A stretch of 64,000 nt of DNA from Paludibacteraceae bacterium (lineage in GTDB: Bacteria; Bacteroidota; Bacteroidia; Bacteroidales; Paludibacteraceae), in NCBI GenBank assembly GCA_017448985.1, contig JAFSKL010000010.1, positions 20,250 through 84,249 on the forward strand, written 5' to 3'. Under the pieces are notes generated by a model, which was given only the letters and a program-made list of their open reading frames with translations, had not been told where the DNA came from and ran no database searches. Positions 26,176-51,715 of the stretch are shown one piece after another. Every line of letters begins with the position of its first letter. Positions within the stretch are counted from its first letter, which is position 1. The position numbers and the translations under genes are program-made.

Positions 26176-27495
26176 ATGGCACAGAAACCAAGTATACCCA
26201 AAGGGACGCGCGATTTCGGGCAAGTGGAAATGGCTCGGCGCAATTATATCTTTGACACCATCAAAGGGGTGTTTCAGTTGTACGGCTTTCAGCAGATCGA
26301 GACGCCTGCGATGGAGAACCTGAGCACGCTGATGGGCAAGTACGGCGAGGAAGGCGACAAGTTACTTTTCCGTATCCAGAACAGCGGCGAGAAAGCGAAC
26401 CTGACGCCGGAGAAAGGTCTGCGTTATGACCTGACCGTTCCGTTTGCGCGCTATGTGGTGCAGCACCGCGAGGAGATCAGTTTTCCCTTCAAGCGCTTCC
26501 AGATTCAGCCCGTTTGGCGTGCCGACCGACCGCAGAAAGGCCGTTACCGCGAATTCTACCAGTGCGATGTGGATGTGATCGGTTCCAATTCGCTGGTCGG
26601 AGAGTTGGAGCTGGTGCAGATAGTAGAGGAGGTGTACCGCCGTTTGGGCATCAATGTGTGTCTGCACATCAACAATCGCAAGATTTTAGCAGGTATAGCC
26701 GAAGTGATCGGTGAGCCCGACAAGATCATCGACATCACCGTAGCCATCGACAAACTGGACAAGATAGGCGTCGATGCCGTGAATGCGGAATTGGCGGAAC
26801 GGGGACTGAGCGAGAAAGCTACTGAGGCACTGCAGCCGATATTGAATCAGGAGTCAGGAATCAAGATTCAAGACAAAATAGTTCAATTGAAGTCGTTCTT
26901 GGCGACGAGCGAAGTGGGACTGAAAGGCATTGAGGAACTGGAGACCTTGTTCGGACTGATAGAGGCGACAAGTGTGAAGTTGAACATTGAATTGGACCTG
27001 TGCCTTGCGCGCGGACTCAATTATTACACGGGCGCGATATTCGAGGTCAAGGCCTTGGACGCACAGATCGGTTCGATCACCGGTGGCGGTCGTTACGACA
27101 ACTTGACGGGTATCTTCGGCTTGCCGGAAGTGTCGGGCGTCGGCATCTCGTTCGGTGCTGACCGCATCTACGATGTGCTGACCGAGTTGGACCTGTTCCC
27201 CAAAGAGCTGCAATCGGCCACACAAGTGCTCTTTGCCGCGTTCGGACAGGACGAGTTGCACTATGCGCTGCGTTGGGCCAACGGGCTGCGGGCAGCAGGG
27301 ATAGCCGTGGAGGTCTATCCCGAAGCGACGAAGATGAAGAAGCAGATGGGTTATGCCGACGCCAAGCAGATTCCGTTCGTGGCCATCGTAGGCGGCGACG
27401 AGATGGCGCAAGGCAAAGTGATGCTCAAAAATATGAGTTCCGGCGAACAAAAACTCGTCGGACCCGACGAACTGATAGAAATGGCAAAATCTTAA
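26176..27495 (+). CDS. hisS: Histidine--tRNA ligase
   Basis: [15 protein letters not shown]..., [25 protein letters not shown] and GGGRYDNL class II motifs. In-frame heptamer array at 26844-26885. Confidence 0.95.
26844..26885. repeat. Degenerate heptamer array x6 inside hisS
   Basis: GAATCAG GAGTCAG GAATCAA GATTCAA GACAAAA TAGTTCA. Encodes [13 protein letters not shown]. Confidence 0.8.
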
Positions 27496-27604
27496 TAATC
27501 GTACATTTTTTCAGGTAGCCTTTAACCACGGTTTACCCACGGTTTAACCACGGTATTACCCCTTGTAGTGCATAGAGGGGCAAAATCTTAAAAATAGTAA
27601 ACTT
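27487..27604 (+). repeat. ~118-bp dispersed intergenic element, copy A (hisS / DUF1599 spacer)
   Basis: Shares three blocks with the reverse complement of 50521-50637: 24/24, about 45/45 and 25/25 identical nt, separated by two short divergent patches. Contains the 11-mer array TTAACCACGGT TTACCCACGGT TTAACCACGGT (27522-27554). Confidence 0.9.
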
Positions 27605-27611
27605 TTGAATC

Positions 27612-28148
27612 ATGGCAGATACGAACAAACAATTTGATTTGGTAACGGCCAAGTGCCGGCAGATTTTTGTGGACAAGATGCAGGACTACGGAGCTTCGTG
27701 GCGTATCTTCCGCCTGCACGGTATCACCGACCAGCTCTACATCAAAGCCTGCAACATCCGCCAACTGCAAACGACGGGCGTCAGTCTGGTGGGCGACGAC
27801 ATAGAGGGCAATCTGCGCGCGATCATCAACTACGGCATCACCGCCATCATCCAGGAGCGGAACGGCTACGCCGATTCGATAGACATGAGCAACGAGGAGG
27901 CGATGCGGCACTACGACGAGGTGCTGCACGAGGCCAAAGAGCTGATGGTGCGCAAGAACCATGACTACGGCGAGGCTTGGCGCGAGATGAGCAAAGAGGG
28001 CATCGTCGATATGATACTCGCCAAGATAATTCGCATCAAGACCATCATTGCCAACGGCGGCAAGACGATTGCGTCCGAAGGCATCGAAGGCAACTACTTC
28101 GATATCATCAACTACGCCATTTTCGATCTTATACATTATGAGAATTGA
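27612..28148 (+). CDS. DUF1599 domain protein
   Basis: KCRQIFVDKMQDYGASWRIFR and KNHDYGEAWREM match my recollection of DUF1599. Its usual Bacteroidota neighbour (BT_3928-like) follows. Confidence 0.7.
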   Translation: MADTNKQFDLVTAKCRQIFVDKMQDYGASWRIFRLHGITDQLYIKACNIRQLQTTGVSLVGDDIEGNLRAIINYGITAIIQERNGYADSIDMSNEEAMRHYDEVLHEAKELMVRKNHDYGEAWREMSKEGIVDMILAKIIRIKTIIANGGKTIASEGIEGNYFDIINYAIFDLIHYEN

Positions 28149-49602: not shown

Positions 49603-50519
49603 TTATTAACCTGAAAGCGTGTATTGCCGTTTTCAATAAAATCAACGATCTGCTTGGCGGCAGCTATTCCGGCATTGATGTTGGCCTCGGCCGTTTGTGC
49701 GCCCATCTTCTTCGGCGTTGCGAAGTAACGGCCTTCGAACAAAGTGCGGAACTTCGCGTCTGCAGCCGGCATAATATCCGTCATGTACTTCAAATCAGGA
49801 CGCTCCTGCATCAGCGTGATCAGACCTTCTTCGTCAATCACTTCCTTGCGCGCCGTGTTGACCAGGATACCGCCTTTCGGCAGCAGATTCACCAAATCAT
49901 GGTTAATACTGTTCTTCGTCTCGGGCGTAGCAGGTATATGCAGACTGACGATGTCGCAAGTCCGGTATAGTTCTTCTGCGCTGTGAACGGGTGTCACATG
50001 AGCAGCCGTCATCGCCTCGTCCGGGCAATAGGCATCGTAGGCATATACTTCCATACCGAAGCCTTGCGCAATACGCGCCACATTACGACCCACATTGCCG
50101 AACGCGTGAATACCTAATTTCTTGCCTTTCAGCTCCGTGCCGCTCGTTCCGTTGTACAAATTGCGCACGGCAAAGACCATCAGACCTAACGCCAATTCGG
50201 CTACGGCATTGCTGTTCTGTCCGGGCGTGTTCATCGCTACCACTTTATGGGCGGTTGCAGCCTCGAGGTCGATATTGTCGTATCCTGCACCGGCACGAAC
50301 GACGATCTTCAGCTGTTTGGCAGCATCCAACACCGCGCCATCCACGATGTCCGAACGGATGATCAAGGCATCGGCCTCAGCTACCGCGTCCAACAACTGC
50401 TGCTTGTCTGTATATTTCTCGAGCAGCGCCAACTCATAGCCGGCTTTCTCCACTACCTCGCGGATGACGTCAACGGCCACTTTCGCGAACGGTTTCTCTG
50501 TTGCTACTAATACTTTCAT
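49599..50519 (-). CDS. serA: D-3-phosphoglycerate dehydrogenase (short form)
   Basis: 2-hydroxyacid dehydrogenase fold (GIHAFGNVGRNVA). Lies next to serC. Confidence 0.85.
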   Translation of the reverse strand: MKVLVATEKPFAKVAVDVIREVVEKAGYELALLEKYTDKQQLLDAVAEADALIIRSDIVDGAVLDAAKQLKIVVRAGAGYDNIDLEAATAHKVVAMNTPGQNSNAVAELALGLMVFAVRNLYNGTSGTELKGKKLGIHAFGNVGRNVARIAQGFGMEVYAYDAYCPDEAMTAAHVTPVHSAEELYRTCDIVSLHIPATPETKNSINHDLVNLLPKGGILVNTARKEVIDEEGLITLMQERPDLKYMTDIMPAADAKFRTLFEGRYFATPKKMGAQTAEANINAGIAAAKQIVDFIENGNTRFQVNK

Positions 50520-50520
50520 A

Positions 50521-50637
50521 AAGTTTACTATTTTTAAGATTTTGCCTCTCTAAACGCACAAGGGGTAATACCGTGGTTAAACCGTGGGTAAACCGTGGTT
50601 AAACCGTATGCACAAAAATGTACGATTATTAAGATTT
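50521..50637 (-). repeat. ~118-bp dispersed intergenic element, copy B (serC / serA spacer)
   Basis: Reverse complement matches 27487-27604. It has the same orientation relative to the flanking genes. Confidence 0.9.
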
Positions 50638-51715
50638 AGTGCAATTTCTCATATTCATGGATGCAATCGACGAGCGCCTGCACGCCTTCGAGGTCCATCG
50701 CGTTGTAGCAGCTCGCGCGGAAACCGCCGACGAGACGGTGCCCCTTGATGCCTACCATACCACGCTGGGTAGCAAACTGGAAAAAATCGTCCTGCAAATC
50801 CGCGTACTCGGGTTTGAACACGAAGCAGATGTTCATGCGGCTGCGGTCCTCTTTATCCAGAATCGTCGGTGTGAACAGTTTGGACTCGTCGAGGCACTTG
50901 TAGAGCAGTTCGGCTTTCGCTTTGTTGCGCGCCTCAATCCACTTCACACCGCCGTTCGCTTTCAGCCAGCGAAGAGTCAGCAAGGCCGTATAGATAGGCA
51001 GCACAGGAGGCGTGTTGAACATCGAACCGCCGTCTATATGCGTCTGATAATTGAGCATCGTCGGGATGTAACGGCTCACGCGGCCGAGGCAACTCTCTTT
51101 GATGATGACGAACGTCACACCTGCCGGCGCCAGGTTCTTCTGCGCACCGCCGTAGATGATGTCGTACTGACTCACGTCTATTGGACGACTCAGGATATCA
51201 GAACTCATATCGGCTATCAAAGGCACGTTGACTTTCTTCGCATAGATCTGCTGCAGCTTGGCGTCGCTGATCTCCGTTCCGAAAATGGTGTTGTTGGTCG
51301 TGATGTGGAAATAGTCCGCGTCTTGCGGTATCTCGTAGTCCGCAGGAATGGAGTTCGTGCTCTCCGCCACTTGTACCACTTCGCCGAAACCTTTCGCCTC
51401 TTTGATGGCTTTCTTCGACCAAACGCCGGTGTTCAGATAAGCCGCCTTGTGCTCTAACATGTTGAACGGTACCATGCAGAATTGCAGACTGGCACCGCCG
51501 CCGAGGAACAGCACACGATACCCTTCCGGCACATTGAGCAACTCTTTGAACAGCGCTTCCGCCTCGTCCACTACCGGCTGGAAATACTTGGCACGGTGCG
51601 AAATCTCCAATACAGACAGACCCTCTCCCTGAAAATCCAGCACAGCTTCCGCCGTTTGTTTGATCACTTCTTGTGGCAGGATACTCGGTCCCGCATTAAA
51701 GTTATATTTCTTCAT
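50636..51715 (-). CDS. serC: Phosphoserine aminotransferase
   Basis: [28 protein letters not shown] and FRASCYNA motifs. Confidence 0.95.

Follow-up and report, generated by a model that had tools for sequence, protein, structure and literature searches.

Modular intergenic repeats with conserved ends and a middle part of variable copy number are known as BOX in Streptococcus pneumoniae and as BIME/REP in Proteobacteria. They sit at operon junctions and 3′ ends and are found in either orientation. BOX has two unlike ends, boxA and boxC, that can pair; in BIME/REP, the REP sequences are palindromes moved by RAYT transposases.

BrickBuilt, a MITE of Porphyromonas gingivalis, displays a minisatellite placed between a conserved leader and a conserved tail (Klein et al. 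2015, PMC4596501). It is the closest published analogue of the repeat unit reported here. Intergenic heptamer arrays are found elsewhere, e.g. the TAACTGA repeats of Beggiatoaceae (PMC4679880) and the GGGAATC-type repeats of Xanthomonas and Nostoc (PMC4692102).

The unit reported here was found in C24:20250–84249 of a 2.36-Mb assembly of 45 contigs (this whole stretch of 64,000 nt is termed the window). It consists of a 24-nt block (termed X), a hypervariable core of ~50–115 nt and a second X block in direct orientation, and it belongs to a non-coding family specific to one genus of rumen bacteria. Like BrickBuilt (PMC4596501), the unit is found in Bacteroidales, is small, non-coding and strictly intergenic, has ~20 copies per genome and a narrow host range, and carries conserved flanking segments around a tandem tract of variable unit number. 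It differs from BrickBuilt (PMC4596501) as follows. The leader and tail of BrickBuilt are distinct and end in terminal inverted repeats like those of the IS5 family, whereas the X unit has direct 24-nt ends; the BrickBuilt tandem unit is 23 nt long and the same in every copy, whereas the tandem unit here has a period of 11 and a genome-specific sequence; and BrickBuilt displays promoter activity, whereas no promoter was detected in the two copies in the window (termed A and B).

The unit resembles the long simple-sequence repeats (PMC4679880, PMC4692102) in having short-unit intergenic arrays at unlinked loci, with fast variation and no known function. It differs from them in being bounded by a conserved non-repetitive block and in acting as one dispersed element. 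Only the core has the defining features of long simple-sequence repeats, which are intergenic units of 5–11 nt, placed head to tail and variable in number; the X blocks fall outside the definition. By itself, the core fits this long-known and unexplained class of short arrays in intergenic DNA (PMC4679880, PMC4692102). No described family that matches the X-core-X unit with its genome-specific core was found in the literature.

The modular plan is shared with BOX and BIME/REP, but X is non-palindromic, the ends are direct, and RAYT does not track the repeat. Matches to Y1_Tnp/RAYT (PF01797) are present in 4 of 25 genomes and do not follow the X copy number, and RAYT-driven REP/BIME was rejected as a class on this ground and on the lack of a palindrome in X. 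X also displays no clear inverted half-sites and no attC-like symmetry.

In architecture only, the unit is similar to CRISPR and integron cassette arrays: short, conserved direct repeats are separated by variable inserts that differ little in length, and there are solo sites and short arrays. Unlike these arrays, X is repeated two to three times at each of ~20 loci, the inserts themselves consist of repeats and resemble one another within a genome, and there are no adjacent cas or intI genes. A CRISPR array was rejected as a candidate, with three or fewer repeats per locus, “spacers” that are 11-nt tandem arrays common to several loci, and housekeeping genes as neighbours.

Copies A and B in the window

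Copy A (positions 27487–27606, + strand) and copy B (positions 50519–50637, − strand) are identical at 106 of 119 aligned columns (~89%). All 13 differences are confined to two patches, at positions 27511–27520 and 27567–27578 of copy A, and none of 100,000 random placements of the differences was as tightly clustered. The alignment bears out a preliminary description of this DNA, which reported two similar spacers of ~118 nt with three identical blocks and two differing patches.

The left block X is AAATCTTAATAATCGTACATTTTT and the right block (termed X′) is AAATCTTAAAAATAGTAAACTTTT; 20 of the 24 bases are identical. The preliminary description had noted a direct repeat, AAATCTTAA, at both ends of each copy. 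This repeat exists, but it is the start of a longer, 24-nt block. Between the blocks is a core of 71–72 nt, which consists, in order, of a degenerate first unit (patch 1), three 11-nt units of the ACCACGGTTTA type, and a tail that includes patch 2.

In copy A, the left block (27487–27510) is an exact 24-mer of X. The hisS gene ends with ...AAA TCT TAA, which is bases 1–9 of the element; the TAA stop codon (27493–27495) is thus bases 7–9 of the left block. Patch 1, the degenerate first array unit TCAGGTAGCC (27511–27520), is the same in a copy at C4:21952 and unlike that of copy B. It is followed by the three tandem units TTTAACCACGG, TTTACCCACGG and TTTAACCACGG (27521–27553; TRF period 11) and by the core tail, TATTACC plus CCTTGTAGTGCATAGAGGGGCA (27554–27582). 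The tail contains patch 2 and a weak hairpin, CCCCT...AGGGG, of 4–5 bp at best; several copies have small hairpins in this region, with differing sequences. The right block X′ is at 27583–27606, and the DUF1599 gene starts with its ATG 5 nt beyond it, at 27612.

In copy B, the first two bases of the left block (50614–50637) are overlapped by the serC stop codon (50636–50638). The core of 71 nt (50543–50613) displays GTGCATACGG as patch 1, three 11-nt units at 50571–50603, and a tail with patch 2. The final base of the right block X′ (50519–50542) is the A of the serA ATG (50517–50519).

The two copies fill the entire stop-to-start gap between hisS and the DUF1599 gene and between serC and serA, respectively, as had been stated before. 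Pfam identifies the flanking genes as hisS, DUF1599, serC (class-V aminotransferase) and serA (2-hydroxyacid dehydrogenase). The exact motif TAnnTTTG is absent from both strands of the copies, in agreement with the earlier observation that no such box is present.

Copies in the genome and in related species

X is found 17, 24 and 33 times in the genome at ≤3, ≤4 and ≤5 mismatches, and 0, 0 and 0 times at these thresholds in a composition-matched genome simulated with a third-order Markov model. The approximately 33 X blocks are spread over about 20 loci. The preliminary description, which gave the element as present twice, is correct in that both copies are real, but further copies exist. It had proposed a search of the genome and of relatives, and this search yielded many copies and defined their ends as the 24-nt X. 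The two outcomes that it named as refuting, i.e. that only two copies exist, with the same sequence at both sites in relatives, or that the similarity is limited to the 11-mer array, do not agree with the ~20 loci and with the match of the X blocks.

Full copies with a ACCACGGTTTA core were found by BLAST and pattern scans at five loci, two in C24 and one each in C4, C26 and C33. C4:21952–22070 is a third near-identical copy, and those at C26:20776–20895 and C33:97324–97453 are more diverged. At C33:36050, a core of the ACCACGGTTTA type is inverted between direct X blocks. Arrays of ACCACGGTTTA with decayed or other flanks are present in C39, C8, C35 (two), C40 and C11, and the unit family of the copy A array is present at 11 loci in the genome. 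Other X...X pairs hold different 11-nt arrays, of the ACCAGCTT, ATACGAGAC and GGAGTnGCT types. C34:6574 and C41:13332 each display three X blocks with two different cores, as does the locus L154, and solo X sites also occur.

The copies are mosaics, with copy A sharing patch 1 with the C4 copy and its array with copy B. Units are 97–161 bp in size, small, dispersed and multi-copy, and no open reading frame was found inside them.

A census of tandem arrays in the window's genome (TRF) shows 2053 arrays, of which 693 have a period of 7. X is found within 70 nt of 13 of the 193 arrays of period 11 or 22, and within 70 nt of none of the 693 heptamer arrays.

The genomes used for comparison are all MAGs, one per species. 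X is almost restricted to the window's own genus: it is present in five of six genomes sampled there, and single stray matches to X are found in only 3 of 32 other Paludibacteraceae genera. Within the genus the number of X copies per genome varies from 0 to 15 or more. An exact 22-mer of X is found in at least 115 contig stretches (one genome per species), all from Paludibacteraceae or Bacteroidales MAGs; among the matches listed, the hosts of these MAGs are ruminants, horse, pig and the human gut. Among these stretches, conservation is limited to the 24 nt of X and does not extend to the flanks. A metagenome scan for close strains, which did not include records near this genome, gave best matches of ≤90% identity and no clean pair of a filled and an empty site. 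Searches of phage and plasmid collections gave no match to the element; four IMG/VR contigs contain X.

A set of 88 X-core-X units was extracted from 45 genomes. The X-to-X spacing in this set is 73, 82, 94–96, 103–107 (mode 106), 115–117 and 137 nt, i.e. it moves in 11-nt steps. For the cores, the autocorrelation reaches 0.51 at lag 11 and 0.43 at lag 22 vs 0.25 elsewhere; lag 11 or 22 is the best lag in 78 of 85 cores.

The cores are related by genome and not by locus. Core pairs that share at least five 9-mers make up 47% of pairs within a genome vs 1.0% between genomes, a value equalled in none of 1000 permutations of the genome labels. X variants are also more similar within genomes than between them. 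In 19 of the 90 pairs of similar cores within genomes, one core is inverted with respect to the direct X blocks.

At orthologous junctions, X and X′ stay and the core differs. The junction between the EngB-like GTPase and the TonB-dependent receptor genes will serve as an example: the core is of the ACCACGG type in the window's genome, TCCGA in G003 and ACATAGG in G004, and other core types are present in JAFYZR, JAILMN and JAFSWF. The serC/serA junction in G005 displays X, a TCGGA core and X, and heptamer arrays are found there in other species. At the hisS/DUF1599 junction, X-core-X′ is present in four relatives from metagenomes, with four more types of core among them, G010 retains an X-like block and only a remnant of X′, and other relatives have GTTAAAN heptamers or no spacer. 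This shows an exchange of the core, at orthologous junctions, for the resident genome's own type.

The preliminary description had proposed a mobile or recombining intergenic module. In substance this is supported by the dispersed copies, their variable number, the mosaics, and cores that are genome-specific and replaced. The further suggestion that the module is MITE-like with a target duplication finds no support in that form. The unit shares with MITEs a small size, non-coding sequence and multiple dispersed copies, but terminal inverted repeats are absent, the ends being direct X blocks, and no autonomous relative with matching ends was found. The same 24-nt X flanks every locus, and it is therefore a part of the element or a specific site, rather than a random target duplication.

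Orientation, folding and promoter-linked X

Copies A, B and C4 are co-oriented with their flanking genes. The units at C26, C33:97324, C33:36050 and C33:21840 and a solo X at C42 are antisense to theirs. The statement that the two window copies have the same orientation relative to transcription is thus correct for A and B but is not a rule for the family. Across genomes, paired units between co-directional genes are sense in 32 cases vs antisense in 20, and solo X sites upstream of genes, in 5′ leaders, are sense in 18 vs antisense in 5. The neighbouring genes include those for CDP-alcohol phosphatidyltransferase, endonuclease I, ABC ATPase, M28 peptidase, PorZ, Ham1, uridine kinase, RpiB, MarC, the EngB-like GTPase and the TonB-dependent receptor. 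No common functional theme is apparent among them.

Both strands of both copies were folded and proved no more stable than shuffled sequences, with z-scores of −0.1 to −1.0. RNAalifold, applied to eight Y-type cores, gave no covarying pair and no consensus fold. Rfam gave no meaningful match, either for the whole window at gathering thresholds or in an E-value search around copy A. Promoter and terminator scans of both spacers gave background levels only. A structured cis-regulatory RNA was rejected as a class on the folding result, the lack of compensatory pairs and of an Rfam match, and the occurrence of both orientations. The functional RNA shared by two operons, which had been offered as the alternative to a mobile module, likewise finds no support in these results or in the functionally unrelated neighbours. 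The UpxY/RfaH ops-like leader element was rejected as well; X bears no likeness to the published hairpin motif of opsX, YGCGNAGCR.

The core ends display no more inverted-repeat matches than the control (2.9 vs 2.8 of 10 positions). No gene-enclosing X pairs 0.4–4 kb apart, as in an autonomous parent, were found among the 115 loci listed. Small serine recombinases are common in the genus, and Resolvase matches are found in X-rich and X-free genomes alike and are absent from two X-rich genomes.

X is also found in a second setting. In 15 of 267 genomes of the genus, it is present at exactly +71, counted from the start of a strong, conserved promoter of the Bacteroidetes type, TTTGCATAATTCAAAGAATTATATTAATTTTGCAC, and the same arrangement is seen in about 10 retrieved loci. 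These loci precede genes for secreted proteins of 1400–2400 aa. The promoter-to-X arrangement always faces the gene (15 of 267 genomes), and none of the 267 was found to have it inverted. X can form part of a 5′ leader. In addition, promoters at C16:6423 and in L149 lie between X blocks. The fixed +71 position together with the strong conservation hints at a host function for X itself, and a host factor may recognise it.

A degenerate inverted X-like sequence is present upstream of the promoter in about 10 loci, at a distance of ~135–160 nt from the forward X. This sequence prompted the idea of an inverton, which is considered below.

Origin of the repeat unit

The reading that we favor, with a probability of about 0.55, is that the element is a non-autonomous composite repeat that has been spread and homogenised by recombination at X, and whose core has been changed by slippage; at the two junctions in the window it would be an inert operon spacer. 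Mobility and recombination are inferred here from comparative patterns. Units would be copied between X-bounded sites, and recombination at X, either as homologous gene conversion or by a site-specific enzyme, would keep them alike within a genome. Replication slippage would alter both the count and the sequence of 11-nt units. Selection would merely tolerate units in gene junctions, and the exact fit to the stop-to-start gaps would follow, because a unit is tolerated only where genes stay undisrupted. At hisS/DUF1599 and serC/serA the unit would be co-transcribed filler without a dedicated regulatory role, which happens to provide a stop codon for the upstream gene and, before the downstream ATG, an unstructured AT-rich stretch. 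Most likely, the spacers are filler DNA of a selfish or neutral kind and not regulatory RNA.

Several observations count against this reading. No enzyme or autonomous parent was found, either among the 115 loci listed or as a correlation with Y1/RAYT or serine recombinases. The conservation of X is unusually high for junk, and a length of 24 nt is close to the lower limit for RecA-type homologous exchange. The 19 of 90 inverted cores are not accounted for by simple X-anchored gene conversion.

A different reading is that a genus-specific protein binds to X, with the paired X blocks bridged into a small loop. The X sites would be integral helical turns apart (about 95, 106 and 117 bp) and the 11-nt-phased core would be bendable or curved DNA, resembling the operator pairs of looping repressors or iteron arrays with ribbon-helix-helix proteins. 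Conservation of the 24 nt of X alone, in either orientation, is consistent with this, as are a spacing quantised at about one helical turn, an 11-nt period that is strict regardless of the unit sequence, the X fixed in 15 genomes at +71 behind the strong promoter that precedes genes for giant secreted proteins, and the X blocks around a promoter at C16:6423 and in L149. We nevertheless consider it unlikely. The copy number varies from 0 to ≥15 among congeners, the loci are not kept as a regulon, their neighbours are functionally unrelated, and no binding protein was identified; gain and loss of units is a simpler account of the 11-nt step. Also, the unit sequence differs between genomes, so that one array-binding protein could not fit every genome. 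Direct X repeats, solo X sites and the three-X arrays (C34:6574, C41:13332 and L154) would also be expected if X were the attachment site of a site-specific recombinase and circles of a core plus one X (~106 nt) were excised and re-integrated elsewhere, as in integron micro-cassettes or Campbell-type integration, which leaves direct X, solo X and X-core-X-core-X. The swapping of cores at fixed X–X′ junctions, the homogenisation of the entire unit within a genome and lengths near whole helical turns would fit as well. This is nevertheless doubtful, more so than a bridged loop: no recombinase is linked to X or correlated with it, X is not a clear pair of inverted half-sites, inverted cores between direct X blocks are not predicted, and double-stranded circles of ~106 bp are sterically demanding. 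Given a similarly small chance is an undescribed, genus-specific DNA transaction system that would recognise X and rewrite or exchange the ~80-nt segment between X sites genome-wide. Its agent would be an enzyme or an RNA- or cDNA-templated process, yielding genome-specific, 11-nt-periodic cores in either orientation. If true, this would be a miniature cassette-exchange or homing process distinct from integrons, CRISPR adaptation, DGRs and RAYT/REP.

A functional RNA in operon transcripts, i.e. a processing site, a translational-coupling element or a leader, could explain why copies A, B and C4 run in the direction of transcription and fit their stop-to-start gaps exactly, why solo X sites in 5′ leaders are mostly sense (18 vs 5), and why an AT-rich X′ is immediately before ATG codons. 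It is, however, very unlikely: paired units are antisense in 20 cases vs sense in 32, with four to five antisense loci in this genome alone, the folding z-scores (−0.1 to −1.0), RNAalifold and Rfam results are negative, and the core is not conserved between species at the same junction. The roughly 10 loci in which a promoter is placed between the degenerate inverted X-like sequence and a forward X suggest a reading in which X is an inverted-repeat arm of phase-variable promoters (invertons) and X-core-X is a by-product of the same invertase, the more so as small serine recombinases are common in the genus. The arrangement faces the gene in 15 of 267 genomes and is inverted in 0 of 267, and for this reason the reading was not adopted. 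The inverted sequence upstream is degenerate, the repeats of copies A and B are direct, with no promoter in either copy, and two X-rich genomes are without any Resolvase match; a Bacteroidales inverton is thus highly improbable here. The retention of X and X′ at orthologous junctions in several species is what an ancient, one-off duplication of a spacer, with neither mobility nor ongoing exchange, would leave behind. The ~20 loci in the genome and the replaced, genome-specific cores contradict such an event, and at the two junctions the closest relatives show either heptamer arrays or no spacer at all; it has scarcely any likelihood.

Unexplained short tandem arrays fill gene junctions in many rumen and gut Bacteroidales, and the X family is a tractable sub-class of them. 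The family has a sharp 24-nt boundary motif, a strict 11-nt period and clear concerted evolution: the same junction carries different cores between species, and different junctions carry the same core within a species. With these defined features, the generation and spread of the arrays and the possible recognition of X by a sequence-specific factor become directly testable.

X-core spacers would mislead searches for operon leaders or small RNAs. They also break assemblies. The 141-nt contig ends that are shared beside a solo X were considered as IS ends and rejected; they are assembly k-mer overlaps at a graph branch. Lastly, the spacers determine start and stop codons, and at one locus a spacer also sets the N-terminal end of a signal peptide.

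Spacer turnover and the X block as coding sequence

The spacer between hisS and the DUF1599 gene, which in the window is filled by copy A of the repeat family (a unit with the conserved 24-nt block, termed X, on both sides of a core of 11-nt tandem units), was compared at window positions 27487–27611 with six loci (L022, L025, L027, L197, L199 and L212). In the closest relatives this spacer consists of GTTAAAN heptamer repeats throughout, and in other relatives there is no spacer, hisS overlapping the next gene. Among congeners, then, what fills the spacer is completely replaced.

Outside the window, the X block is found at the junction of an EngB-like GTPase gene and a TonB-dependent receptor gene (contig C4:22040–22070 of the same genome, G000; also loci L007 and L009). 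Here the ATG of the receptor lies inside the final 7 nt of the core, and the right X block encodes the start of the receptor signal peptide, M-G-K/R-ILKIVNF-LLLC... This X-encoded start is kept in at least seven species, despite a differing upstream core.

X near promoters and in tandem arrays

X stands exactly 71 nt past the start of a conserved promoter cassette, TTTGCATAATTCAAAGAATTATATTAATTTTGCAC (C3:40504–40598 of G000, outside the window; also L084, L108, L115, L131, L133, L139, L143, L150 and L177). A degenerate X-like sequence, inverted, is present upstream of the cassette. The downstream genes encode secreted proteins of 1400–2400 aa. The cassette with X was detected in 15 of the 267 genus genomes scanned, one per genome, and no inverted (OFF) copy was found among the 267.

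At C34:2059–2263 and C6:23251–23455 of G000 (also loci L005 and L015), X is located mid-array among 21–22-nt iteron-like units (CTGAAAAAGGTTGAC...), and the array is immediately upstream of a TAnnTTTG promoter on the minus strand. At least three species keep this layout.

Two more families of 11-nt arrays, ACCGACGGTCA and AGCGCGTGATT, each occur at many dispersed loci in G000, with a semi-conserved right flank (AAGCCAAnGTCA...); these arrays are without the X block. One set includes C21:110162, C21:129337, C8:24499, C45:35258 and C45:74320, among others, and a second set includes C6:23092, C7:4277 and C2:119429.

X at contig ends and on viral contigs

Identical 141-nt contig ends in G000 (C32:48548–48688 and C41:1–141) carry an X block without a partner, directly behind a gene's stop codon. 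At a distance of ~1.8 kb there is a gene for a small serine recombinase (C32:46323–46748), and the site could represent a structural-variation hotspot, e.g. a shufflon.

An exact 22-nt match to X is also present on the minus strand of an IMG/VR contig (IMGVR_UViG_3300029731_000129, at about 2636–2659), within a tyrosine recombinase (integrase) coding sequence, where it is translated as protein. This may be due to chance or may be where the motif came from. The sole relative in G000 is distant (24% identity). Two other IMG/VR viral contigs (L278 and L279) have in common an intergenic X-like block, a 48-nt core and then an exact X; thus the element or its boundary motif is also found on putative phage DNA of the lineage.
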